From the NCBI GenBank assembly GCA_001771185.1, contig METB01000001.1, positions 5,875 through 69,874 of the forward strand: a DNA stretch of 64,000 nt, read 5' to 3'. The stretch comes from a candidate division Kazan bacterium RIFCSPHIGHO2_01_FULL_44_14. Its GTDB lineage: Bacteria; Patescibacteriota; Kazan-3B-28. The notes under the pieces are model-generated. The model had not been told where the DNA came from, did no database searches, and was given only the letters and a program-made list of their open reading frames with translations. The translations under genes and the position numbers were made by a program. Positions 3,247 through 46,502 of this stretch are shown piece after piece (the first letter of the stretch is position 1; each line of letters starts with the position of its first letter).

Positions 3247-3440
3247 TGTTTGATATCCCGGAACGGAAAAAGCTGGCGCGGGAGGTATTTCGCGGTAAGC
3301 TGGTCCAGCTGGGTTTTAAAAAGATTCAGTATAGCGTTTGGCGACATCAGTATCCCTGTCAGCGGGAAATTGAATTTCTGGTTCATCTTTATGGGATTGC
3401 TGGATATGTTGATGTCGTGGAGGGTAAAAAAATTTCGTAG
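3198..3440 (+). CDS. Cas2-like (Cas2/VapD fold) small protein, solo; overlaps the cysS 3' end
   Basis: The motif RFVMFDIPERKKLAREVFRGKLVQLGFKKIQYSVW matches the Cas2 beta1-Asp...YG.R.Q.SVF core. It is paralogous to the C-terminus of the ORF at 27501-28001. The ATG at 3198 (an alternative TTG lies at 3177) is in a different frame from cysS and overlaps it. Confidence 0.5.
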   Translation: MQIPPQDPWDGLYRFVMFDIPERKKLAREVFRGKLVQLGFKKIQYSVWRHQYPCQREIEFLVHLYGIAGYVDVVEGKKIS

Positions 3441-3490
3441 TTTATCCATCTTTTAATGATAATCAAGGGGAAGAGTGGGAGTCAGAATAC

Positions 3491-3522
3491 GCCGAGTTGA
3501 AGCGGCCGCTTCAACTCGGCGT
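3491..3522. repeat. 32-nt perfect palindrome cgccgagttgaagcGGCCgcttcaactcggcg downstream of the Cas2-like gene
   Basis: The sequence equals its own reverse complement. GTAGGATAGG direct repeats follow it. Confidence 0.7.
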
Positions 3523-4008
3523 GAAGGGTAGGTAGGATAGGGCAGACAGGTAGGATAGGACAGATGCGGAAGTGAGCCATAGATAAATAGTGGAAAAAGT
3601 AAAAGGCCACCCGGGGTAAACCCAAGTGGCCTGTTTTGTGCGCGACAGTCCCAGAACCGTAAACGAAATGAAGGAAGAAAAAGTTTACGGCCTCCGCCTG
3701 GACTCACTCCGTTTCCCATACCACCTTGTATGGTTTGGATTTTCGTCGCGCTTCCGCCCCCTGGCAGCGTTTGGGAGGTGAGTTTTGAAAACAAATCTCA
3801 CGCCTGATTAGGAGCGGAAAGTTAGGAGGGAGATGCAATGGCGGGTGACTTATAAAAAGATGATTGCCAGCGAACGCCGAGTCACCCTAAGGAACATGAT
3901 AGATGATGACAAATAACCCTCCGACTATAAGACGCTATCATATGGCTGATTTTAAGTCAAGCACAAAAACTTGGCTCTAGACCAATAAAAAGTGGTAGGG
4001 GATAGGTG

Positions 4009-4976: not shown

Positions 4977-5540
4977 GTTGAGGTTTCAAAGAGTGTCAAG
5001 AGGGGAGATAATTTCCAGAAGGGTGGTTTTTGAGGTTTTTGGGATTTTCAAATTTCTTTTGTTTATTTTTGTTATTTTTTTTGCAACGCCTGTGTCGCGT
5101 TGCATCGATGGTTTTTGCCACCCCATTTGCTTGTCCAAATGGGGTGGCGCCCCAAAAGACACCCCACTCACCAATTGCTAGCCAAAATAGAAAATCACCC
5201 TTTCTGGTCTCCTCGCCCGCATTGCTACGCAAAGCGTTGCGGGCGGGTAACGCAAACTCGTCGCTACGCTCCTCAAACATGCTGGACCAAGCAGGTGATT
5301 TTCTAATTGGCGAACCCGCCTACCGGCAGGCAGGCGCAATTGGTTCGATGGGTCCTGGTAAGATTAACACCCAGGAGAATTGAGAGGATACCATAACTTT
5401 TAACTATCTCCATCTCTCCCCTGCCTGCCTGCCCGCCTGCCGGAGGACAGGTAGGCCTGCTGGTTTACAAAAAATTGGCCCTGGGCTAGGGCGGCGCCCC
5501 GTAGTGAAAAATTGGCACTGCTTGGCTTTTGGGCGAAGCC

Positions 5541-5568
5541 CTGACAATTTCTACTACCGGGGTATAAT
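5541..5568 (+). promoter_or_regulatory. Sigma70-like promoter (CTGACA-N16-TATAAT) for the tRNA
   Basis: The -10 TATAAT at 5563-5568 is 10 nt upstream of the tRNA 5' end. Confidence 0.45.
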
Positions 5569-18937: not shown

Positions 18938-19244
18938 TTGTTTTTAATTCGTAACGGGGGTTGGACTGCCAATGGCTAATATTTTTTAAGTCAAAGCAGT
19001 CCTTTTAATAGCCCTCGGAGGGAGACAACCAAAAAGGGTTTTCCCCCTTCCGACGACCGTCATCCGCCAACTGGCGGAGACGGATTGAATCAATATCTTA
19101 ATTTTGAAACATTCAGTCATTCGGATTTGATTCGAAGTTAGTCCGCCAGCTGGCGAATTGGAAATTAAATCTTCAAAAGCGTCAAAATGACGCCACCATA
19201 ACTTTTCACTATTCACTTTTAACTTTTAACTGACTTCTAACGGA

Positions 19245-22310: not shown

Positions 22311-22440
22311 TTATTGATGCCCCGAAGAACTGCTTGCCCATCGAAGCCCTGGCGTAGTTGGGAGGGGATACAGTTTTTCTTGTCATTGCGAGTTTACCTA
22401 CCGGAGGTTGGCCGTAGGCGTGGCAATCTATCTTTCTTTA

Positions 22441-22665
22441 TGTCATTCTGAATTTTCTGCCAACTGGCGGATCAGAATCTATTTAATTTCTTTCTGCCAC
22501 CATTTTACTCACCCAATATGCTTTTGCAACGCCACATTGCGTTGCATCAATGCCCGCTTTGTCTTGTCAAAGCTGGGTAAACCGCTGACCAACGTTCTCG
22601 GGTTTATTCATTGGCTAAATCCTCTTTCTGCTTTCCGCCTACTGGCGGAGGGGCAAACTCCTCCC
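22441..22665. repeat. About 225-bp dispersed repeat element, copy 1 (second copy at 46121-46340)
   Basis: The two copies share long near-identical blocks (ccaactggcggatcagaatctatttaatttc..., cttgtcaaagc, attcattggctaaat). Sub-modules ccgccaactggcgg and gccaccccatttg recur elsewhere. Confidence 0.65.
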
Positions 22666-22845
22666 TTTAGTCGTTAAACATACGGCCCTGTCTGCCGATA
22701 GGCAGGTCCACCCACCGAGATTTAGTTCAGTTCAGCCTGCCTGCCGGTAGGCAGGAATAACCCTCGTCCTAGGGCCAATTATAAACGAATCTCTATACTA
22801 GACACTTTTGCCTTGCTCGATGTTATCTGGTTTACTGAATATGTT

Positions 22846-23286
22846 ATGACACAAGACCACGAAGTATCTCTATGGACAGTAGAGGCGGCACAAATTGCTG
22901 CAAAAAATGGCCAACTCCGTCAATGGGTTATTGATTTTCTCGATAGCCCGGCGGGAAAAAACTCTAAGTTTGCTGAAGACCTTCGTAAAAATCCTAGTTG
23001 GGTTTTTGACGCTCCAATTAAATTTCCACTTCAAGAGCTTACTCCTATTAGTGGACAGCCAGAAGATAATCGCCTATTTCACGATTCGCATTGGGACGAT
23101 AATGTATCAGCTATGGTTGAGGCCATTGCTAGTGGTTGGTGTCCTCCTCCACTGATTGTGACGAGTAATCTAGGTATTCCCAATGGCATCTCTGATGGTA
23201 ATCATCGTTGGTCAGCCCTGCGAGAAACTGGTCATACCGAGTATTGGACTATCTTCTACTATCCAAATCCATCCAAGCCATCCTAA
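22846..23286 (+). CDS. ParB/sulfiredoxin-like nuclease-domain protein
   Basis: ISDGNHRWSALRETGH resembles the ParB-like nuclease DGxHR motif. The start was chosen at the ATG at 22846. Confidence 0.45.
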   Translation: MTQDHEVSLWTVEAAQIAAKNGQLRQWVIDFLDSPAGKNSKFAEDLRKNPSWVFDAPIKFPLQELTPISGQPEDNRLFHDSHWDDNVSAMVEAIASGWCPPPLIVTSNLGIPNGISDGNHRWSALRETGHTEYWTIFYYPNPSKPS

Positions 23287-23355
23287 TTTGCTCGATGGGT
23301 TCTACTAAGATATTCCCTGAGCGGAGTCGAAGGGGTACCATAACTTTTCACTATT

Positions 23356-23589
23356 CACTTTTAACTTTTAACTGTCCCCATATCTGATAATCAGCTCCCA
23401 GAGCCACTTTCTGCTTGACAGGATTCTGGTTCAGGAGTATACTCAGGGGGAATTATTGGTCGTTGAAAACTTGACGAAAAGCGCGACGTGACAGACCTGA
23501 TGGTCGGTCGCGAAAAGATACGTTGTTCTGGTAAGCACCTCTTCCTGGTCACTAAGAGGTGCATTGTTCTGAGATCCTAGGAGAGAGAA
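23356..23589 (+). promoter_or_regulatory. Duplicated promoter (TTGACA 23415-23420, N17, TATACT 23438-23443) plus a conserved ~150-nt leader, copy A
   Basis: Near-identical to 37606-37823 through the promoter, and about 75% identical through the leader (conserved core agacctgatggtcggtcgc-aaaagata). Confidence 0.55.
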
Positions 23590-23784
23590 ATGAAAAGATT
23601 TTGGAGTGTTATTATTGCGATTGTTGCTTATACGACGCTATTCGGTTACTGGTTGGGAATTGTCTACTTGGGTGGATTTTCCCATAATCTTATCCTGGCG
23701 AGTGTCATTGCGATGATCGTAACGATAGTTCATTTTGGCATTCTGTGGATGGCCTGTCGTAGTCCTCGTAACAAATCCATTTAA
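23590..23784 (+). CDS. Small two-TM membrane protein
   Basis: 64 aa, strongly hydrophobic, driven by the duplicated promoter/leader. Confidence 0.4.
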   Translation: MKRFWSVIIAIVAYTTLFGYWLGIVYLGGFSHNLILASVIAMIVTIVHFGILWMACRSPRNKSI

Positions 23785-24015
23785 TAGGATTGATTCCGAC
23801 TCTCTGGAGGAGGGGTCGACACATGCTCTAACTGCACTTTTAAAATCGCGGTTGAGGCGTGCCCATTGCCTCGGAGCCGAAAGGTAAAAATGGGAGTGAT
23901 GGGCCGACCATGGTATGAACTGGCGACACGAAAAATTAAAGTAAAGTTCCAAATTATGTGTCTTGACGGATTAGCTCATTTTCAAACTCGCGCTATCTGC
24001 CGAGCATTGTTCATT

Positions 24016-24046
24016 AAAAGGGCGCCTGTAAGGGCGCCCTTTCTCA
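24016..24046. terminator. Bidirectional hairpin terminator (aaaagggcgcc tgta agggcgcccttt)
   Basis: A perfect 9-bp GC stem with flanking A- and T-tracts, between convergent genes. Confidence 0.6.
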
Positions 24047-24222
24047 TACTCAAATTTTATATAAATGTCATCCTCGGGGCCACTCTTGGTGGAGCCCGGG
24101 GATCCAGAACAGAAAAAGGTAGTCCCTCCGTTCGTCGGGAAAACAAATATTCAATATCTTAAAAAAGCGGATATTATCCGCTACCAACATTTTTAATTTT
24201 TCATTTGGAATTTTTAATTGGG

Positions 24223-24903
24223 TTATCCCAATAGCCCCTGCAATGCCTGTTCCGCAGCATGCATTTCGGCTTCACGCTTACTGCTACCGCTTCCGGTAGC
24301 AATTTTTTTGTCTCCAACAAAGAGCCCTACCGTAAATGTCCGATTGTGGTCGGGGCCGGTGGCTTTTTCTAATTTATAATGCGGAGTCGTCCCATCTTGC
24401 TCTTGAACGATTTCTTGGAACCGACTCTTGGCATCAATGTGCTCTGCAGTTTTGATAATGTCGGTCAATCGAGGAAGGAGGAATTTGCCTAAGAATTTTT
24501 CGACAGCGGGCAGACCCTGGTCGAGGAACAGGGCGCCAATAAAGGCCTCGGAAGCGTTACTTAAAATCATGGCTTTGGCTTTATCGGCGTTGCCGGATTC
24601 GCCTTTGCTTAGACGCATATATTTTTCAAATTGTAATTCCTTGCCGATCTCGCTTAAAGTATTTCGGCGAACCAGGGCCGCGCGAAGGTTAGTTAATTCG
24701 CCTTCGGGTTTGTCGGGAAATTGCTCATATAAAAATTGAGTAACGATTAGTTCCACGACAGCATCACCCAGAAACTCTAACCGTTCATTGTGGCCAGTTA
24801 CTTCCGAGTGCTCGTTCAAATATGATCGATGAGTAAAGGCCTGCTCATAGATGGCAGTATTGACCAGCGAAATTCCAATAATTTTAGACAGTTCATCAAA
24901 CAT
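24223..24903 (-). CDS. rnc: Ribonuclease III
   Basis: HRSY, ERLEFLGDAV and a C-terminal dsRBD. Start trimmed to M24 of the ORF (8-nt overlap with nusB). Confidence 0.85.
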   Translation of the reverse strand: MFDELSKIIGISLVNTAIYEQAFTHRSYLNEHSEVTGHNERLEFLGDAVVELIVTQFLYEQFPDKPEGELTNLRAALVRRNTLSEIGKELQFEKYMRLSKGESGNADKAKAMILSNASEAFIGALFLDQGLPAVEKFLGKFLLPRLTDIIKTAEHIDAKSRFQEIVQEQDGTTPHYKLEKATGPDHNRTFTVGLFVGDKKIATGSGSSKREAEMHAAEQALQGLLG

Positions 24904-28761: not shown

Positions 28762-29009
28762 TCAATCTCACCAATCTGAACAATCTGTACCAATCTTTTG
28801 GTTAGATCCCTCGGCTTCGCTCGGGATGACAGAAAATTGGATAAATTGGTTAGATTCGCCCAGCAGGGCTAAAAGCTTGACTGGGGGCGATGATTCAGAT
28901 AGGGTGAGGGCGTTAGGTGGGCCTGTGATTTTCAGGGATATCAAACCACCAGCACCTTAACGACTAGGCAAAAATAGTTAGCCGGAAAGGTGAGTAAAAG
29001 GAGACTAAG

Positions 29010-29738
29010 ATGAGTGAAGGAAAACTCTTAGCCGCCTGTAGGAAGATAGAGAACATCTTACATGAGCTTAGGAAACAAGAGTGTGATTCAGAGGGACATG
29101 AGGGACATGGCCAAAGAGCTGCCGAGTTTCTGAAGCAAATCAGATCACTCGATGACGAGCGTGCTCTCGGCAGGTTTCTCCAGCGTGGGAAACACCTTTT
29201 AGAGTTGATGGTAAGGGAACGGATACCTTCTGTGGAGGAATTTCGGAACCTTCTTGACGACTCTTGTCCTCAAATTATTAATTGTGATGCGAAACCAATA
29301 GTCCCGAGTGGACTAAAAATATGGGAGCACACAAAGCAAGGGATGGTGGAGTGGCGTCCGGAGAGATTTCAGTTTTATCGCTCTCCTTTGCAGGAGGGTT
29401 GTTGGCAACTCGGAAAAGGTTGTTCTGGCTCGGTTCTCCTTCAAGAGCTACGGGATAAAAACAAGCAGGTGTGCAACGCCTGTTTGGCAGATTGGTTACT
29501 CGGCAATCCTCGGTTTGTGTTGGGCGATAAGTGGCGTGAAGGTCACTGTAGCCTAGTTAGGGTAATTTTCTGGGGGACAATATTCTCTGAAGTGAGCGGT
29601 AAAAAACGCTATGTCAAACATCTGAGCTTTGGTGGGCCGTTTGGGCTACACACGGGTGTAATTGAACTTGACCAAGTTCGTTTCACCGGTGGAACTAATT
29701 TCGACCAGGACTCTCCTGCATTGATTATGGTTGGTTAG
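29010..29738 (+). CDS. Orphan hypothetical protein (GC-elevated cassette 2), Cys-rich
   Basis: 242 aa with no recognisable domain, followed by a strong terminator. Confidence 0.45.
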   Translation: MSEGKLLAACRKIENILHELRKQECDSEGHEGHGQRAAEFLKQIRSLDDERALGRFLQRGKHLLELMVRERIPSVEEFRNLLDDSCPQIINCDAKPIVPSGLKIWEHTKQGMVEWRPERFQFYRSPLQEGCWQLGKGCSGSVLLQELRDKNKQVCNACLADWLLGNPRFVLGDKWREGHCSLVRVIFWGTIFSEVSGKKRYVKHLSFGGPFGLHTGVIELDQVRFTGGTNFDQDSPALIMVG

Positions 29739-29753
29739 TTAAGTGTTATCCAA

Positions 29754-29783
29754 GGGCGGGTCTTCGGACCCGCCCTTTTTTCG
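29754..29783 (+). terminator. Rho-independent terminator gggcgggtcttcggacccgccc + TTTTTT
   Basis: A 7-bp GC stem with a T6 tract. Confidence 0.75.
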
Positions 29784-29820
29784 TGCCAAAAGGGGATGGG
29801 GTACACTAGAAGAGACGGGG

Positions 29821-30068
29821 AGAGCGCTACGCTAGATCCTTCGGCTTGCTTTGCTCGCTCAGGATGACAGAAGGAGGAGATAAGAATGACGAAAATGGAT
29901 CCTGAAACCCCTCGATAAACTCGGGATACTGTAAATTCAGGATGATGAGAGAGCGCTATGCTAGATTCTTCGCTACGCTCAGAGTGACAAAAGAGGGGCG
30001 GGAATGACGAGGATGGATCCTGAAACCCCTCGATAAACTCGGGATACTGTAAATTCAGGATGACGGGG
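29821..30068. repeat. Two tandem copies of a ~129-bp composite repeat upstream of uvrB
   Basis: Copy 1 runs 29821-29949 and copy 2 runs 29950-30068. They share an identical 49-mer (ggatcctgaaacccctcgataaactcgggatactgtaaattcaggatga). A related unit lies at 56090-56160. Confidence 0.7.
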
Positions 30069-30133
30069 GAAGATGGCTCCTTTCCTCGGCAAGCTCGGAA
30101 CCTTGCTTATCCTCGGAGTATTAAATTAATAAA

Positions 30134-32125
30134 ATGGCAAATAAATTTAAGATTAAGTCAAAATTGAAACCAGCCGGCGATCAGCCGACTGCCATCAAGC
30201 AGTTGGTGGAAGGTTTGAGTAAAAAATACCGCGACCAGACCTTGTTAGGTGTGACGGGGTCGGGGAAAACCTTCACGATGGCGAATGTAATCGAGAAAAC
30301 CCAAAAGCCGACCTTGGTAATTGTTCATAACAAAACTTTGGCGGCACAGTTAGCATCAGAATTTAGAGAATATTTTCCTGACAATGCGGTACATTATTTT
30401 GTATCGTATTACGACTACTATCAGCCGGAGGCGTATATTCCGCGGACGGATACTTATATCGCCAAGGATGCATCGATCAATGATGAAATAGATAGATTGC
30501 GAAATGCGGCGACCGAGGCGCTGTTAACCCGTAAAGATGTGATTATTGTGGCGTCGGTGTCGTGCATTTATGGCTTGGGCAACCCGGAGGTCTACAAAAA
30601 AGAAAGTATCGAACTGAAAGTGGGCAAGACCTACAAGCGGGAGCGGATTTTACGGCAACTGGCGGATATTCAATATCAACGCAACGATATCAACTTTATT
30701 CGGGGGACGTTTCGGGTGCGGGGCGAGATTTTAGAAATCTTTCCGGCGTATGCGGAAATGAGTTATCGGTTTGAGTGGTTTGGTGACAAATTGGAACGGA
30801 TTCGGCAGGTGGATTATTTGACTGGAGAAATTTTGGATGAACCGAAATCGGTGATAATTTTTCCGGCCAAACATTTTATTACTCCGCAAGAACGGTTGAA
30901 AAAAGCGATCGAACAAATTCGAGATGAACTGCGAGAGCGGTTGAAAGAATTTAAGGCCACCAGTAAATTACTGGAAGCCCAACGACTGGAACAGAGGACG
31001 AATTATGATATCGAAATGCTTCAAACGATTGGATATATTTCTGGAATTGAAAATTATTCCAGGTACTTGGATGGACGAAAACCGGGCAGCCCGCCTTCAA
31101 CTTTGCTCCATTATTTTCCCGACGATTTCTTGATGTTTATCGACGAATCGCATATGACTTTGCCGCAAATTCGGGGAATGTATAATGGTGACCGAGCCAG
31201 AAAAGAAGTTTTGATCGAACATGGATTCCGGTTGCCGAGTGCGTTTGACAATCGACCACTGCAGTTTCTGGAATTTGAAAAATTAGTTAATCAAGTAATT
31301 TATACTTCGGCCACTCCGAGCCAAGAGGAACTAAGTAACAGTAAGCAAATTGTCGAACAAATTGTCCGGCCAACTGGATTAGTTGATCCAGCGGTGGAGG
31401 TGCGGCCGATCGAGGGACAAGTGGACGACTTGATGGAAGAAATTCGTAAGCGAGTGAGTGTCCATCAGCGGGTGTTGGTGACAACGCTCACTAAAAAGAT
31501 GGCCGAAGACCTAACGGCGTTTTTGCAAGAAGCCGGAATTAAGGTGCAATATTTACATTCGGACGTGGAAACGCTGGAGCGAATCGATATTTTGCGAGAT
31601 TTGCGCCTGGGTAAATATGATGTGCTGGTGGGAATCAACTTGCTTCGCGAAGGATTGGACTTACCAGAAGTTTCGTTGGTGGCGATACTGGATGCTGACA
31701 AAGAGGGATTTTTGCGGTCTGACACGGCATTAATCCAAACCTTTGGTCGAGCGGCACGGCATTTGGACGGCAGAGTGATTATGTATGCTGACCATATTAC
31801 CGGCTCAATGCAACGAGCGATTGATGAGACCGATCGGCGACGCGAGAAACAAGTTGAATATAATAAACAGCATAAAATTACGCCGACGACGATTGTGAAG
31901 GCCATTAAATCAATTCATCAATCGAAAGAAAGTCCGCCAGTTGGCGGAATTCCGGACAAGGATGAGGTGAATAAGTTCGCTCGAGCGGCTAATGCTGAAG
32001 AATTGAAATCATTGCTTCGTGAGTTAGAAGACGAGATGGATTTGGCGGCGAAGAATCTGGAATTCGAAAAAGCAACGGAACTTCGTGACCGAGTGGAGAT
32101 GCTCAAGAATGAGATACGACAATAG
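30134..32125 (+). CDS. uvrB: Excinuclease ABC subunit B
   Basis: [10 protein letters not shown] Walker A, helicase motifs, and a C-terminal UvrB/UvrC-interaction helix. A small palindrome (ccgccagttggcgg) lies in the linker at about 31925. Confidence 0.95.
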
Positions 32126-32383
32126 GTATCCCCTCAGTTCTTCGGGGTAACAAAATTAAGATGACGGACGAAGATGGATTCCGGCCTGCCTGCCGGTAGG
32201 CGGGCTCAAGGCCGGAATGACATAAAGGGGTGGATTGCCACGCCGACGGCTCGCAATCACAAAAAAAGAGAACGGCTCGCAATCACATTTTCATACTTAC
32301 CCGCCTCTAAGGGCTGATACAAAACAACCAAACAGCAATTGGTGTAGATTGGTGAGATTGGATAAATTGGTTAGATTTGCGCG

Positions 32384-37104: not shown

Positions 37105-37605
37105 TTTTTTGTTGCCCCGAGGTACCGAGGGGCTACCTTGTTTTGCGAAGCCCTGCGTAGCTCGTTAGAGCGTAGAAGGGTCATCCTTAATTTTTGGTTT
37201 CCCGACGAACGGAGGGACTTCATTGTTTTTTTCAAGGGTCTACGCCACCCTTGATGGGCGGTTACTTTCCTCTTGGGGAAAGTAACCAAAGCCGTCTCCG
37301 CAGTCGCCCTCTTTATTCATCACAACTAATTCTCTTACTGCTCTCGCCAAACTTTCCCGGCAAGCCGGGATTCGAACAGTTGGCTTCGCAACGGAAATTA
37401 GTTGGATTCAGAACACTCGGGCTCCAATGCTCGATTAAGAGGGGATAGTAACTACTCGATGGGTACCAATGAGATTGATACCCTGCCTACCGGCAGGCAG
37501 GCCCGAAGAACTGCTTGCCCATCGAAGCCCTGGCGTAGTTGGGAGGGGATACCATAACTTTTCATCGCAGATCCTTCCGTAGCTTTAGGCGGAGGAGGAC
37601 TTATC

Positions 37606-37823
37606 ACTTTTAACTTTTAACTGTCCCCATATCTGCTAATCAGCTCCCAGAGCCACTTTCTGCTTGACAGGATTCTGGTTCAGGAGTATACTCAAGAGGA
37701 ATTTGGACGTTGAAAATTTGTTGGAAACAAGCGCGGCAGACCTGATGGTCGGTCGCAAAAAGATATTCTGGGCGCCTTCCCCTAGGAGGTAGTATTGTTA
37801 TTACCCCGAGGAGGGGGAAAGAA
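37606..37823 (+). promoter_or_regulatory. Duplicated promoter (TTGACA 37664-37669, N17, TATACT 37687-37692) plus conserved leader, copy B
   Basis: See 23356-23589: the same promoter and leader core (agacctgatggtcggtcgcaaaaagata) sits in front of an unrelated gene. Confidence 0.55.
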
Positions 37824-38699
37824 ATGGTTATTCAGCAGGTTTTGACATCTGTTGGTTTCTTGCTTGTCGCAAGCTGGCTCGTGGGAATGATTTTTGCCTT
37901 TATGGCACTGTATTTTGTCGGCTGTGCTACCGACTTTACAGCGATTCCAGCTGGCAAGAAGCTTAGTTTCTTCCTTCAGACAAGCCTAGGCGTCGGCTTA
38001 TTGTTAGCGGCGCTGGTTGTCTCTTTGAAATTCGCTTTGGGGATCGTTGAAACACAGGTCTTCATGACCTTTGGTTGTATTCTATTCACTTCCCTGGTTT
38101 CCCGGGCGGTGATAAAAAAGTTGAAGCAGTCGAAGGAGGAGAAAGAGACGACTTCCGAAGAAACTCCAAAAACGAAAAGGGAGATGAGAATTGTTGAGAA
38201 TCTTTTGTTCGTGCTCCCGGAGTACAACGAAAGGGCCGTGGCTCTTTCTCTTCGTGATGACTTTTGTGGGAGCACAACCACAACAATCACTCCATCGGAA
38301 GCTGACGAAGTTGGAAAGCCTGGACCTCGGCGTTTGCTGTTGGTCGAGTTTCAAGAGAATCTTAATTTTCATCAGATTCTAGAAACTCAAATGCCAAACA
38401 ATACACGTGCCGCGACCTTAAGGGAAATTATGGTCGCAGCAAAACAGTTCCGGCTTGCGGGTCGGCGGCCTCTGGTGTGTCTTATTAGACAGGGAGAGAA
38501 AGGGTACGGCGGTGGGACCGTTCGCTTCCTTTCCAGTGTAGACTCATTCGGAGGTTATACCACCGGTGATCGGGGCAAGGGGAAATTTCTTCCCGAATAC
38601 CCCGGTAACATGTGGCTCACAGGAGCAAAAGTTGCATTAATAGCGGAGGAGGGGTATGAATCGCAAGAATCATCACCCACTCCAGTCGTCACCGCTTAA
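37824..38699 (+). CDS. Orphan membrane protein (4 TM helices + ~180-aa soluble domain), GC-elevated cassette 3
   Basis: 291 aa with no recognisable domain, driven by the duplicated promoter/leader. Confidence 0.45.
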   Translation: MVIQQVLTSVGFLLVASWLVGMIFAFMALYFVGCATDFTAIPAGKKLSFFLQTSLGVGLLLAALVVSLKFALGIVETQVFMTFGCILFTSLVSRAVIKKLKQSKEEKETTSEETPKTKREMRIVENLLFVLPEYNERAVALSLRDDFCGSTTTTITPSEADEVGKPGPRRLLLVEFQENLNFHQILETQMPNNTRAATLREIMVAAKQFRLAGRRPLVCLIRQGEKGYGGGTVRFLSSVDSFGGYTTGDRGKGKFLPEYPGNMWLTGAKVALIAEEGYESQESSPTPVVTA

Positions 38700-39305
38700 G
38701 AAGCTTAGCAAAAACACGTAACTATTATTTTTCTCAAAGAGGGGAAGAAATGAGCGGTTTTATCTAGGTACGCATAAAAAACTGCGGTCTAGGGGTCGGA
38801 TCGGGATCAGCCCGGACGATTGTTAGATACGTAGCAAAATGCGACAAATGGGCGGGCAGGACTCCGCCGTAGGGTGTTTCTCCCCTGACACCAATCCGTA
38901 ATGACTGATCGCAAGGTCTAAATCGGAAAGTAGAGGATGATTTAAGTGGTTCGGGCAATTTCGGACAATCGGCGCGCGTTATGACCGCGCCACGTCAGCC
39001 CAACCACTGCACTTTTTAAAAGGCGTTCTGCTTAGCAGGACGCCTTTTCTCGTGCCCAAATGATAGGGTAAGGTAGTTCCAAGTAATTTTGAATGATGAA
39101 TTTTGAATTTTGAGTGAATGACCTAATATCTTAATTTTGGAACATTCAGTCATTGGGATTTGATTAGAAATTTGAAATTAGAAATTTAGGTAGCCCCTCA
39201 GTTCTTCGGGGCAACAAAATAATATCACTCCACTTACCCGCTAACCTGCTTTCTCTACGGGGTTGAATAAAACCCGGTTTTCAGGTACTATTGGTGCGTT
39301 AAGAT

Positions 39306-42760: not shown

Positions 42761-43617
42761 GTTAACCGTAATTTTTGGTTTCCCGAGGCACCGCCTGCCC
42801 ATCGAAGCCTTGGCGTAGTTGGGAGGGACTACCTTGATTTCTTTTGCCACCCCATCCGTCGGGATAATTTCTAATTTCTAATTTCTAATCAAATCCCAAT
42901 GACTGAATGTTTCAAAATTAAGATATTAAATCATTCACTCAATCCGTCAGCCCCAAAAGAAAGGGGGGTCTTAGACCCTGACGGACAAAATTACTTGCTG
43001 GGATACCATAACTTTTCACTATCCCTACAGGGTTGACGGGAATTAAATGGTGTGGTAACATAAAAATCGTTGTATCAGAGCGGTTCTGACACCTGACGGG
43101 ACGCTGTTATTTTGGCTGGTGAGTGGGACTCGCAGGGTTCCCCCGGCAAAAACCAAGAACCTCCGCTAAAAACTGGAATTTAAGCAAGATTCCAAGTTCA
43201 GGAGATAAGCTCTCGTTTAGTGAAAGGTGTACCGTACACGATACCTGTCTATGTTCATTGAGGTACGGGAGAGAGGAGGATATGCCGTCCAATGTTGTGG
43301 CGGAAATCAAATCCCTCCCAATTGTTCTGCTGCCAAAAGTAGCATTGCTCTGTTCTTCTCTTTTTTTGTCTCTCTTTTTTGTCCGTAAGGGCCTTGCGGG
43401 AGATCGAGACAATCGCCAGTAGTCCTGCGTTGGGGACATGGATGATTGTATGGACGCAGCGATGCTAACCTGGCTAGCGGATGATGGGGAGCAACTTCCC
43501 CTAACGCGCGCTTTTGGTCGCACCCGTTCTAATTGATGAAGCGAGTAGCGGAGCCAGGGTGGAGGGATGGCCACGAATTTCCGCCAGTCATCCTCTCGGC
43601 CAAAGCGAACAAGTAAG

Positions 43618-43651: not shown

Positions 43652-44057
43652 CATACAATTCAGATTGGTGAGATGGGTGAGAAAATGTTATAAAAAGAAA
43701 CGGCCGTCTATTTATAAAACATATTTTCTCTATAGGGTTGACACCGAATTCTGCTGTGGTAATCTGGTCGCGTTCCCTGCTGTTGGACTGTGAGTTTTGC
43801 CCTCCCCCCAAAGGAATCCCATAGGTCCGATATGCGGGTGAATTGTTCTTGAACCGGAAGCCGGCCATAATCTCTCAACTATAGTGCCAGATGTCTGGAA
43901 GCGATAGCATCATGCTGTGACCCAGAGGCATTTTATCAGTTGAAGGCCGCCATTGTCTGCTGAAGATATGGATGGCAAAATGACCGGTATAAATTAAGGG
44001 TCCCCATTGCGCAAGCTGGGGACCTGTTTTTATGTTCGGTCAGGCATAATAGAGGAG

Positions 44058-46106
44058 ATGACCTATAAGTTTTCAGCGAAGAATTTTCCTGACAAACCCG
44101 GTGTGTATTTGATGTACGGGGAGAGATTGCCGCGCTCCGCTCGCAATGACGAGAAGGGGCCAGTTTTGTATGTGGGGAAGGCCAAAAACTTGAAGAAGCG
44201 GCTAAGTTCTTATTTTCAAGGTAGCCTTTCGACTCGCTCCGCTCGCTTAGGGTCTAACGGCAAACTAGTCAGCCCCAAAACGATAGCATTGGTGGAGCGA
44301 ATCCATAAAATCGACACAATTGCAGTGAAGAATGAGCTCGAAGCGTTGTTGCTGGAAAATGAATTAATCAAAAAATATCGGCCAAATTTCAATGTGGTAA
44401 TGCGGGATGATAAATCGTATCTATATATTCGGATTACGGTTAATGAAGAATTCCCGCGAATTTTATTAGCTCGTAAAGTCGCCAAAGATGGGGCGAGATA
44501 TTTTGGGCCGTACGCCAGTTCGGGGCCGGTGTATGAGGGGTTGAAGTTGATCAATCGGACTTTCCCGGTCTGTACCGGCGTGGTGGGGCAAAAAAGAGCG
44601 TGCATGAATTATCATTTGAAGATTTGTCCAGGAGTGTGCGTGGGGCGAGTTAGTTCAAAGGAATATCGGAAGACCATCGATCAGGTGATGCGATTTTTGC
44701 ATGGCAACTATCCACCGGTGATTAAACAATTAAAGGCGGAAATGCAGCGGTTGTCGGCTAATCGGGAGTTTGAGCGGGCGGCGCGGATTCGAGATGGGCT
44801 GAAAGCGCTGGAGGCGATTAATGAACGGCAGAGCGTGGTGCGAGCCAACTTGTCGGTCAGTGAGGACGCGATTGGGGTAGCGCGAGAGCTGAATAAGGCA
44901 ATGGTAGTGCTGTTGCAGGTGCGGTCGGGTAAACTGCTTAATCAACAGCAATATGCGATCGATACTAAATATGAAACGGAACTGCCAGAGATTTTGGCGG
45001 GGTTTTTGCGGGATTATTATAGCGAGGCAGCGGACTTGCCAAAGACGATTTTGTTACCGGAAATGATTGAGGGAAATGAAGCGTTTGAAAGGTGGCTGAC
45101 TAATTTGACTGGTAAAGCTATCGGATTGAAAGTTCCGGCCAAGGGTCGGCAGCGGGCAATAGTCAGATTGGCGCAGTCAAATGCCCAAATGAAATTCAAT
45201 CAAATTTCCGGACGCTGGAAATTGGAAAAAGTAGTGGCGACCGAAGGAGTGAAGGGGTTGAAGAAAATCCTAAAGCTAAAAAAAATCGAGCGGATTGAGG
45301 CCTATGATATCTCCAACCTGCAGGGTACCGATTCGGTCGGGGCGATGGTGGTGTGGGAAAAGGGGCAACTGGATAAAAAACAATATCGCAGGTTTAAGAT
45401 CAAAACCGTAGTTGGTCCGAATGATTTTGCATCGTTGGCCGAGGTACTGAAACGGAGATTTGCATATCTTTCTTCTTCGGTCATCCCCGTCTCTCCTTCC
45501 GTCATTCCCAGGAAGGCGGGAATCCAGATAAAAAAAGACAACAAAGGTAGTCCCTTCCTCCTTCGCCCAAGCCGACTACGCTCTACAAGCTACGACAGGC
45601 CAAGGGCTACGGGCGGGCAGGCGGTTCCTCGGGATGGCAAAACTACCGATGGCAGTTTTGTTGTTTTGCCTGACGTGGTCTTGATTGATGGCGGTAAAGG
45701 ACAAGTTAACACGATTGCGAGGGTATTGAAAGATTACAAAGTGGCGGTGATTGGGATTGCTAAAGGTAGTCATAGTCGGACAAAAGCTAGGGATGAGCTG
45801 ATATTATGGAAGCATTCCTCCTTCGCCAAGGCTTCGGAGGATCTGCGAGATAATTCGCCGACCAAAATGTTGTTGCAGAACATTCGGGATGAAGTGCATC
45901 GCTTTGCTGTCGCATATCACACAAGTTTGCGTAAAAAACGCACGATCACCTCTGGGTTAGAAAAAATTGCTGGGATTGGGGCAGTAACGCGCAAGAAGTT
46001 AATTAAAGCATTTGGGAGTATGGCTGGAGTTAGGGCCGCGTCCGCGGGGGAGATTGCGAAAGTGGTAGGGGAAAATTTAGCGAAAAAAATTAAAGATTCT
46101 TTTTAA
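44058..46106 (+). CDS. uvrC: Excinuclease ABC subunit C; carries a ~55-aa in-frame repeat-derived insertion at about 45470-45660
   Basis: GIY-YIG (PGVYLM...YVGKAKNL), UvrBC-interaction region, RNaseH-like domain (VVLIDGGKGQ) and a (HhH)2 C-terminus. The insertion SSSVIPVSPSVIPRKAGIQIKKDNKG... is encoded by the same module found in cysS, in inverted orientation. Confidence 0.9.
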   Translation: MTYKFSAKNFPDKPGVYLMYGERLPRSARNDEKGPVLYVGKAKNLKKRLSSYFQGSLSTRSARLGSNGKLVSPKTIALVERIHKIDTIAVKNELEALLLENELIKKYRPNFNVVMRDDKSYLYIRITVNEEFPRILLARKVAKDGARYFGPYASSGPVYEGLKLINRTFPVCTGVVGQKRACMNYHLKICPGVCVGRVSSKEYRKTIDQVMRFLHGNYPPVIKQLKAEMQRLSANREFERAARIRDGLKALEAINERQSVVRANLSVSEDAIGVARELNKAMVVLLQVRSGKLLNQQQYAIDTKYETELPEILAGFLRDYYSEAADLPKTILLPEMIEGNEAFERWLTNLTGKAIGLKVPAKGRQRAIVRLAQSNAQMKFNQISGRWKLEKVVATEGVKGLKKILKLKKIERIEAYDISNLQGTDSVGAMVVWEKGQLDKKQYRRFKIKTVVGPNDFASLAEVLKRRFAYLSSSVIPVSPSVIPRKAGIQIKKDNKGSPFLLRPSRLRSTSYDRPRATGGQAVPRDGKTTDGSFVVLPDVVLIDGGKGQVNTIARVLKDYKVAVIGIAKGSHSRTKARDELILWKHSSFAKASEDLRDNSPTKMLLQNIRDEVHRFAVAYHTSLRKKRTITSGLEKIAGIGAVTRKKLIKAFGSMAGVRAASAGEIAKVVGENLAKKIKDSF

Positions 46107-46120
46107 TTACTTTTCTTTTT

Positions 46121-46340
46121 TGTCATCCTGGATTTTCCGCCAACTGGCGGATCAGAATCTATTTAATTTCTTTTGCCACCCCATTTGTTTGTAATCTTTT
46201 TGACCGCGGAATGGCGGTCAATCCATTCCCGCTTTGGCTTGTCAAAGCGGGGCAAAACGCTGGCCTGTGTTCGTCGGGTCTATTCATTGGCTAAATTGCT
46301 AGGCGCTCTCGGCGGACTAAACCGCCTCCGCCCTAGTCGC
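46121..46340. repeat. About 225-bp dispersed repeat element, copy 2
   Basis: See 22441-22665. Confidence 0.65.
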
Positions 46341-46502
46341 AATTTAGCTCAATTCAGTACAACCCTCCTCCAATGGCGGAGGAGGATAAAAGATTGACCC
46401 AGAGCGGGATTTGGGATAGGATAGAGGCGTTAGGTGGGGTCTGAAGTTTAGTAGGACAATTCAACCACCAGCATCTTGAAAAGATGTCGTAAGGAGCTGA
46501 CT

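Follow-up and report, generated by a model that had tools for sequence, protein, structure and literature searches.

Genomes of CPR (Patescibacteria) are regarded as compact. The DNA described here comes from an ultrasmall CPR bacterium of candidate division Kazan that inhabits Rifle groundwater, and the analysis covers a stretch of 64,000 nt, called the window throughout. Nearly all genes of the window lie on the plus strand. They include recR, cysS, gyrA, infB, a DHH/DHHA1 gene, rnc, nusB, rpsP and trmD, and the further housekeeping genes uvrB, dprA, topA, uvrA and uvrC. At two places in this series, neighboring conserved genes are separated by about 2 kb of DNA with orphan open reading frames (ORFs):

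22311-24222, plus strand: insertion INS-1, between the DHH/DHHA1 gene and rnc; carries ORF157, copy A of the duplicated segment and ORF64
23590-23784, plus strand: ORF64, a two-helix hydrophobic orphan of 64 aa that is absent from the NCBI annotation
37105-39305, plus strand: insertion INS-2, between topA and the conserved pilin-like orf140; carries copy B and ORF291
37824-38699, plus strand: ORF291, with three N-terminal membrane helices and a C-terminal domain of unknown fold; NCBI lists it as hypothetical protein A3K24_00245

A segment shared by two unrelated genes

Copy A (~23285-23592) and copy B (~37450-37826) lie 14.2 kb apart, and each precedes an orphan predicted membrane-protein ORF. 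An earlier note on this DNA had described a nearly identical segment in front of both ORFs, and self-BLAST of the window bears this out: positions 23350-23520 align with 37599-37765 over 171 nt at 88.9% identity (E = 2e-48). The note had placed the beginning of copy B at 37606, which is off by one, as CACTTTTAACTTTTAACTGTCCCC starts at 23356 in copy A and at 37605 in copy B.

Similarity between the copies is highest in the promoter block, where 93 of 97 positions are identical (96%; z = 42.7 versus shuffles). From the predicted transcription start (near 23450 in copy A and 37699 in copy B) to the end of the conserved core, 59 of 70 positions agree (84%; z = 19), and between the end of the core and the ATG the figure is 42 of 53 aligned positions plus several gaps (~60%; z = 8). 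The conservation that had been reported to continue past the promoter into the leader is therefore real, and it extends up to the start codon. There it stops. Over their first 150 nt, the coding regions lack similarity (z = -0.7 versus shuffles), and direct comparison of the ORF64 and ORF291 proteins finds them unrelated, as had been claimed for the two genes. Because the paralogy ends exactly where translation would start, in front of unrelated coding regions, the arrangement is not a simple gene duplication.

The leader contains a 20-mer core, CAGACCTGATGGTCGGTCGC, which occurs exactly twice in the window, with 0 occurrences expected by chance. On the 5' side of the promoter block the similarity is weaker and takes the form TCGATGGG...TACCATAACTTTTCA, which is interrupted in copy B by two inserted modules.

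Near-consensus promoters and unusually long leaders

The promoter block of each copy comprises the following elements:

23356-23446, plus strand: promoter block A, differing from copy B at one position; contains CACTTTTAACTTTTAACTG and the palindrome CTGATAATCAG
23415-23420 and 23438-23443, plus strand: -35 box (TTGACA) and -10 box (TATACT) of promoter A
37605-37695, plus strand: promoter block B, with its -35 box at 37664-37669 and its -10 box at 37687-37692

The sole mismatch inside this block falls within the palindrome, which reads CTGATAATCAG in copy A and CTGCTAATCAG in copy B. Both copies have the TTGACA-N17-TATACT arrangement that the earlier note had pointed out. Relative to the sigma-70-type pattern (TTGACA, TATAAT, 17 ± 1 nt), each matches 11 of the 12 consensus positions and has a 17-nt spacer. 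Each copy is thus a near-consensus sigma-70-type promoter as predicted from sequence, and we infer that it is active. Comparable promoters stand directly before a tRNA gene, rpsP and other genes of the window, and since these are equally good, this type of promoter appears to be used in this genome. Predicted sigma-70-type promoters with 10 to 12 of the 12 consensus positions are found at window positions 5541, 8979, 10652, 15699, 26292, 47914 and 59455.

Elsewhere in the window, near-consensus promoters lie only 4-30 nt before start codons or the tRNA gene, or 80 nt in the case of the S1 gene. Given the norm of 4-30 nt, the promoter-to-ATG distances of 146 nt (copy A) and 131 nt (copy B) are unusual here, and the predicted leaders of ~140 and ~125 nt, respectively, are unusually long for this genome. 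Judging from these predicted promoter positions, mRNAs of this genome seem as a rule to have a very short leader or none at all.

Lineage-specific insertions built from dispersed repeats

Sister Kazan loci were picked around TopA homologs that are 84% (loci L044 and L045) or 69% (L046) identical. These loci are perfectly syntenic with the window, but compact. The DHH gene and rnc are separated by 9-10 nt in L046 versus 1912 nt of repeats and orphan ORFs here. Likewise, the gap between topA and the ortholog of orf140 (71% identical to the L044 ORF) measures 34-94 nt in L044 and L045 and 63 nt in L046. Because the sister gaps are short at both sites, INS-1 (1.9 kb) and INS-2 (2.2 kb) are lineage-specific insertions that are absent from the orthologous sites of relatives. 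From infB to uvrC, the same gene order occupies 26.9 kb here versus ~18.3 kb in L046, and none of the repeat modules described below are present in 50 kb of three sister genomes.

The intergenic regions of the window are mosaics of dispersed modules, and INS-1 and INS-2 have modules in common, both with one another and with other expanded intergenic regions. For example, TACCATAACTTTTCA occurs five times in the window versus 0.37 occurrences expected, CACTTTTAACTTTTAACTG occurs three times, including one site at 19214 directly before infB, a 51-nt block also occurs three times, and many further modules are repeated as well. Another family consists of a REP-like palindromic module, ATTTTTGTTGCCCCGAAGAACTGAGGGGCTACCT, whose long form has a 28-nt insert. 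The modules that flank the insertions or lie upstream of the two promoter blocks are the following:

22313-22373, plus strand: REP-like module, long form, at the left end of INS-1, directly after the DHH stop codon; 100% identical to 37502-37552
23285-23355, plus strand: upstream modules of copy A, TCGATGGG...GGGGTACC, then TACCATAACTTTTCA; 73% identical to 5338-5407
24107-24151, minus strand: REP-like module, short form, at the right end of INS-1, in reverse orientation
37105-37138, plus strand: REP-like module at the left end of INS-2, in forward orientation
37450-37604, plus strand: upstream modules of copy B, consisting of TCGATGGG, a long REP-like module (37502-37552), TACCATAACTTTTCA (37550-37564) and a 39-nt insert
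39188-39225, minus strand: REP-like module at the right end of INS-2, forming a 38-nt inverted repeat with the left end (37105-37138) at 87% identity

REP-like sites are located at 22313-22373, 24107-24151, 32123-32156, 37105-37138, 37189-37233, 37502-37552, 39188-39225 and 42770-42832. At both INS-1 and INS-2 they are oriented forward at the left and reversed at the right, so the insertions are bounded by terminal inverted repeats, a trait of MITEs and other transposon-like insertions. The module also lies directly 3' of the stop codons of the DHH gene, topA, uvrA and uvrB. Because it occurs singly after other stop codons, it may mark the ends of genes rather than the ends of elements. Inspection of the INS-1 and INS-2 flanks revealed no clear target-site duplication, and the two insertions are not full-length near-identical copies of each other; they have only some modules in common. 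Within the promoter-leader module itself, the only terminal inverted repeat found is a weak one of 16 nt in copy A (23344-23359 / 23582-23597, 75% complementary), which is absent in copy B. BLAST comparison of INS-1 and INS-2 to phage and plasmid records gave no match.

Copies A and B are not the only duplicated non-coding sequences of this kind. A second block of 185 nt (22437-22620 / 46117-46296; 78% identical) precedes two unrelated orphan ORFs, one of 157 aa at 22813 and another of 244 aa at 46476, so duplication of upstream blocks before unrelated ORFs is general in this genome. The earlier note had named a finding that would count against a regulatory role, namely that the copies are just another dispersed repeat without preference for sites upstream of genes. 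Part of this applies, as both copies belong to a lineage-specific system of dispersed mosaic repeats, although each of them does precede an ORF.

A promoter-like pair at 28867-28921 and 46384-46438 precedes ORF242 and ORF244. In addition, UvrC (44007-46106) is 699 aa long here versus 598-609 aa in two sister Kazan genomes, and the excess is made up of four insertions (10, 13, 56 and 6 aa) that are in frame and lineage-specific. The largest, of 56 aa (~45490-45660), lies at the same place as a long-form REP-like module on the minus strand and as one arm of an inverted repeat (2858-2893/45491-45526) whose other arm lies inside cysS.

The two downstream ORFs are orphans

A search of 5.8 billion proteins returned for ORF64 only its match to itself. 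For ORF291, no homolog was found among 5.8 billion proteins or, with HMMER, among 1.84 billion representatives, and neither protein matches an entry of Pfam, PHROG, NCBIfam or PADLOC. The AlphaFold model of ORF291, computed from the single sequence, has a pLDDT of 45.6 and is confident for residues 1-107 only, which include the three N-terminal helices. Neither the HMMER scan nor the model points to a function of ORF291. Codon scores are frame-consistent and low for both ORFs (0.094 for ORF291 and 0.021 for ORF64, with confident genes at 0.08-0.34); the score of ORF291 is comparable to those of other membrane proteins of the window.

A small hydrophobic protein such as ORF64 could in principle be the toxin of a type I toxin-antitoxin pair, in which a small membrane peptide with a long structured 5' UTR is accompanied by an overlapping antisense RNA. 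No minus-strand promoter-like site is present in 23000-24300, and the second copy of the segment precedes a protein of 291 aa, which does not fit such a system.

Strain comparison reveals little variation in the leaders. Leader A is identical across 10 contigs, and leader B has two SNPs in a single contig, located no more than 20 nt from the contig end and probably errors. One strain variant (L004) of ORF291 has five SNPs, four of them non-synonymous (C85G, E125V, G248S and G267V), with 0 SNPs in 130 nt of leader and 0 in the 298 nt downstream of ORF291. This pattern, drawn from one strain and few SNPs, fits an ORF that may be evolving rapidly or may be unconstrained.

Probable recombination between the copies of a putative expression module

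Between the two copies, a tract of ~110 nt at ~99% identity is flanked on both sides by sequences of 60-84% identity, which is the pattern expected of a recent gene-conversion tract. As we infer from this profile, the best explanation for a promoter at ~99% next to a leader at 60-84% is that the copies have recently undergone recombination or gene conversion, and the promoter part has probably been homogenized in this way.

Contigs from other Rifle samples contain junctions between the copies. In L009 (1-1431) and L013, the region upstream of copy B is joined to leader A and ORF64, and in L041 the region upstream of copy A is joined to leader B and ORF291. Thus, both reciprocal types are represented, and all three crossovers fall within identical runs of the promoter block. 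These hybrid contigs are short (1.0-3.7 kb), and for this reason they could be low-coverage assembly chimeras. Either they are such chimeras or, if they are real recombinants, they reflect tandem duplication and deletion of the 14.2-kb segment. The ~99% tract within less similar flanks and the hybrid junctions in population contigs both resemble what is seen with segmental duplication accompanied by gene conversion.

We consider the most probable explanation to be that a module comprising a promoter, a 5' UTR and a ribosome-binding site was duplicated within a lineage-specific expansion of intergenic mosaic repeats, and that its copies reside in insertions that carry orphan ORFs. The two segments would then be paralogous copies of an expression module of ~240-300 nt, arranged from 5' to 3' as dispersed upstream repeats, a near-consensus sigma-70-type promoter, a 5' UTR of 125-140 nt with two conserved stem-loops, and a ribosome-binding site ending at the ATG. 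Each copy sits inside a ~2-kb lineage-specific insertion of an otherwise compact and syntenic Kazan chromosome. The insertions are themselves mosaics of lineage-only repeat modules, bounded by inverted REP-like copies and each bearing an orphan membrane-protein ORF. Such a module would supply transcription and translation signals to whatever ORF follows, and identical promoters imply that the two unrelated ORFs would be co-expressed.

Structures predicted for the leader RNAs

In a repeat-rich genome, conservation from promoter to leader can arise through duplication and gene conversion, and two paralogs are insufficient to establish a regulatory RNA. The leaders nonetheless have predicted features that bear on possible RNA functions:

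23456-23478, plus strand: stem-loop 1 of leader A, stem UU.GUCG / UGAC.AA with the conserved loop UUGAAAACU
23488-23520, plus strand: stem-loop 2 of leader A, GUGAC-A-GACC-UGAU-GGUC-G-GUCGC with the A-rich tail GAAAAGAUA; the conserved island
23535-23562, plus strand: 9-bp hairpin of leader A, GCACCUCUU/AAGAGGUGC, then AUUGUU
23580-23585, plus strand: ribosome-binding site of ORF64, GGAGAG, predicted to be mostly unpaired
37703-37725, plus strand: stem-loop 1 of leader B, loop UUGAAAAUU, from RNAalifold
37733-37765, plus strand: stem-loop 2 of leader B, GCGGC-A-GACC-UGAU-GGUC-G-GUCGC plus AAAAAGAUA
37774-37790, plus strand: hairpin of leader B, GCCUUC/GGAGGU, then AGUAUUGUUA; weakly terminator-like, and the counterpart of the 9-bp hairpin of leader A
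37810-37817, plus strand: ribosome-binding site of ORF291, GGAGGGGG, predicted to be paired with CCUUCCCC

The earlier note had proposed folding the two leaders with RNAalifold as a check for compensatory structure. This analysis yields two shared hairpins. Stem-loop 1 has a conserved loop, UUGAAAAYU, on a stem that contains one compensatory pair (U-A versus A-U) and two wobble changes. Stem-loop 2, with the consensus GYGRC-A-GACC-UGAU-GGUC-G-GUCGC, has two one-sided wobble changes and is present in the minimum-energy and centroid folds of both leaders. As a whole, the leaders fold no better than shuffled sequences (z = -0.47 and -1.59). The conserved island, measured as a run of 20 positions or as 28 of 30, exceeds the prediction of uniform divergence (permutation p ~0.012-0.015). 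This long island, the compensation and kept wobble pairing, and the length of the leaders hint at selection on the RNA, not just shared ancestry.

These hints underlie the main rival explanation, which holds that stem-loops 1 and 2 and the A-rich tail form a cis-element in the 5' UTR that is bound by a trans-acting factor or stabilizes the mRNA. The factor could be an RNA-binding protein, a small RNA or an RNase, and both genes would be co-regulated post-transcriptionally. An island with p ~0.012 in unusually long leaders argues for such an element, as do the conserved loop on a variable stem (one compensatory and two wobble changes) in stem-loop 1, the two wobble-compensated positions of stem-loop 2, and the recovery of stem-loop 2 in both types of fold for both copies. 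Against these points, the comparison involves only two sequences of common ancestry, the overall folding is no more stable than that of shuffles, the element is absent from sister genomes, and no candidate for the binding factor has been identified. We therefore regard a cis-element as unlikely, while noting that it is compatible with a module spread by duplication. The other idea of the earlier note, a regulator-binding site common to a small regulon of membrane proteins, is also a possibility.

A bolder version of this idea strikes us as rather doubtful. It would make the segment a recombination-spread or mobile expression cassette of this CPR lineage, whose 5' UTR is a new cis-regulatory RNA for orphan membrane-protein genes. 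It is similarly doubtful that the RNA of such a cassette links newly acquired or newly arisen orphan genes to common post-transcriptional control. If the cassette reading is true, shared RNA control would exist in a genome whose leaders otherwise seem to be very short or absent.

Beyond the shared hairpins, RNAalifold predicts a helix in which an anti-ribosome-binding-site tract pairs with the ribosome-binding site. The default states predicted for the two copies are opposite: copy A forms the local 9-bp hairpin and leaves the site open, whereas in copy B the site is paired and closed. A switch that sequesters the ribosome-binding site was consequently rejected as a mechanism common to both copies. 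The terminator scan did not call the 9-bp hairpin of copy A, whose loop is 10 nt long and whose tail reads AUUGUUCU. No conserved antiterminator was found in the leaders, and the terminator-like site of copy B (37774-37790) is weak. A conserved leader peptide was likewise considered and rejected. A peptide read from the ATG in the core begins with MVGR(E/K)KI in A and B alike and then diverges immediately, and this ATG has no ribosome-binding site. Minus-strand ORFs are not conserved.

Searches for related RNAs and further copies

When the whole window was scanned with Rfam 15 at gathering thresholds, the only match was one tRNA. At E values up to 10, copy A had chance matches (U4 and a snoRNA) and copy B had none. 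The covariance scan suggested by the earlier note thus uncovered no relevant family at gathering or permissive thresholds.

We also constructed a covariance model (R1) of the 78-nt 5' domain, with nine base pairs, and ran it with filters off. Copies A and B score 104 and 96 bits, respectively, and everything else in the window scores 14 bits or less. In the flanking 10 kb at each end of the window the model identified no additional copy, and it had no match in the sister-genome loci L044 and L045. Similarly, a 29-mer from the promoter and the 20-mer core each have only their two known occurrences in the ~84 kb so covered, which is roughly 12% of the ~0.7-Mb genome.

Among public sequences, the 20-mer core has three chance matches in GC-rich coding DNA of a genome contig collection, and a 19-mer version has 13 matches in a metagenome contig collection, all by chance. 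A 22-mer from the promoter has 0 matches in the latter, from which it follows that this collection is without contigs of this organism. Two patterns searched in a viral contig collection also gave 0 matches. The earlier note had suggested a search for further copies, and none beyond A and B turned up in the ~84 kb of genome or in the public collections scanned.

These results bear on the earlier note's proposal of a riboswitch or attenuator. In such a ligand-sensing riboswitch or transcription attenuator, the conserved 5' domain of the leader would be the sensor and its variable 3' region the expression platform. The layout of the leader is fitting, since a long 5' UTR with a conserved 5' part and a diverged 3' part, together with alternative anti-ribosome-binding-site pairings, is what riboswitch and attenuator families in Rfam also display. 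Moreover, the 3' pyrimidine tract has two possible pairing partners, a nearby purine tract and the ribosome-binding site, and a hairpin followed by AUUGUU is present in both copies. In contrast to riboswitch families, only two paralogs in one species are at hand, conservation across species is lacking, and the genes that follow are orphans without a metabolic link. No Rfam family fits even at E values up to 10, the conserved part amounts to two small hairpins only, the predicted states of the ribosome-binding sites are opposite (A open, B closed), and no homolog appeared in sister genomes or among the genome, metagenome and viral contigs scanned. With folding no better than that of shuffles and no further copy in the ~84 kb or the collections searched, this proposal is very improbable.

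The 3' hairpins raise another possibility, that the promoter drives a separate small RNA of ~110 nt ending at the hairpin and AUUGUU, with the ORFs being incidental or translated by read-through. In both copies a hairpin and a weak U-containing tract do lie ~25-35 nt before the ATG, and ORF64 has a weak codon score and was not called as a gene by NCBI. Such a small RNA is nevertheless extremely unlikely, because the similarity runs past the hairpin through the ribosome-binding site to end exactly at the ATG, the U-tracts are poor, and ORF291 is long, frame-consistent and scores like the other membrane proteins of the window. Just as implausible is a DNA operator for a dimeric transcription factor at GYGRC-N-GACC-N4-GGTC-N-GTCGC or at the palindrome CTGATAATCAG near -55: each of these sequences is an inverted repeat, and copies A and B have the same core, but the core lies at ~+40 to +60 downstream of the predicted start, which would be unusual for an operator, the only mismatch of the promoter block falls in the palindrome, and no regulator gene is adjacent.

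Comparison with known repeat systems

The probable explanation given above, duplication of an expression module within a mosaic-repeat expansion, has partial precedents. The Correia elements and NIMEs of Neisseria and the REP and BIME sequences of E. coli are short intergenic modules that occur in variable order, often right after stop codons. Some repeats of these types carry -35 and -10 boxes, promote transcription of the neighboring gene and become part of its 5' UTR, where they form hairpins. Correia elements in particular are units of ~100-160 nt with their own terminal inverted repeats and a high copy number. The closest known kinds for the Kazan module would be promoter-bearing dispersed repeats and intergenic mosaic elements of the Correia/NIME and REP/BIME types, which it resembles in being lineage-specific and absent from the orthologous sites of relatives. 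Unlike Correia elements, the promoter-leader module lacks terminal inverted repeats that belong to it and is present in two copies only in ~84 kb. It also differs from all of these families in that the sequences are unrelated, no target-site duplication was found, and it resides in a CPR bacterium whose genome measures ~0.7 Mb.

The palindromic elements of Rickettsia (RPE) offer a second parallel: a reduced genome with palindromic repeats and an in-frame insertion in an essential gene, here the 56 additional aa of UvrC. This likeness is limited to the REP-like family and does not extend to the promoter-leader module, and it involves no sequence relationship.

In one Kazan lineage, then, a syntenic stretch of 18 kb has grown to 27 kb by lineage-specific mosaic repeats, with the in-frame insertions of UvrC included. 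The ~2-kb insertions bring strong predicted promoters together with orphan membrane-protein ORFs. If these ORFs are expressed, such insertions would provide a route by which CPR bacteria gain lineage-specific surface proteins with ready-made expression signals.

Other variable sites in the region

Variation among relatives is also apparent at two sites away from the duplicated segments. Between trmD and uvrB, one of the sister loci with 84% identity (L045, 3525-4978) contains a reverse transcriptase gene and a bAvd gene, an arrangement like that of a diversity-generating retroelement. The same place in the window (29010-30070) holds an orphan ORF of 242 aa and a tandem 97-nt repeat with copies at 29856-29952 and 29976-30070, whose 69-nt core (29884-29952 / 30002-30070) differs mostly at adenines. 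Furthermore, a contig of the same species from another sample (L028, 13250-13780) has ~437 nt more than the window (~3300-3900) between cysS and an sdpI-like gene. The extra segment includes a 176-aa ORF of the PaaX_M (Cas2-like) type and represents a strain-level indel in a repeat-rich region.
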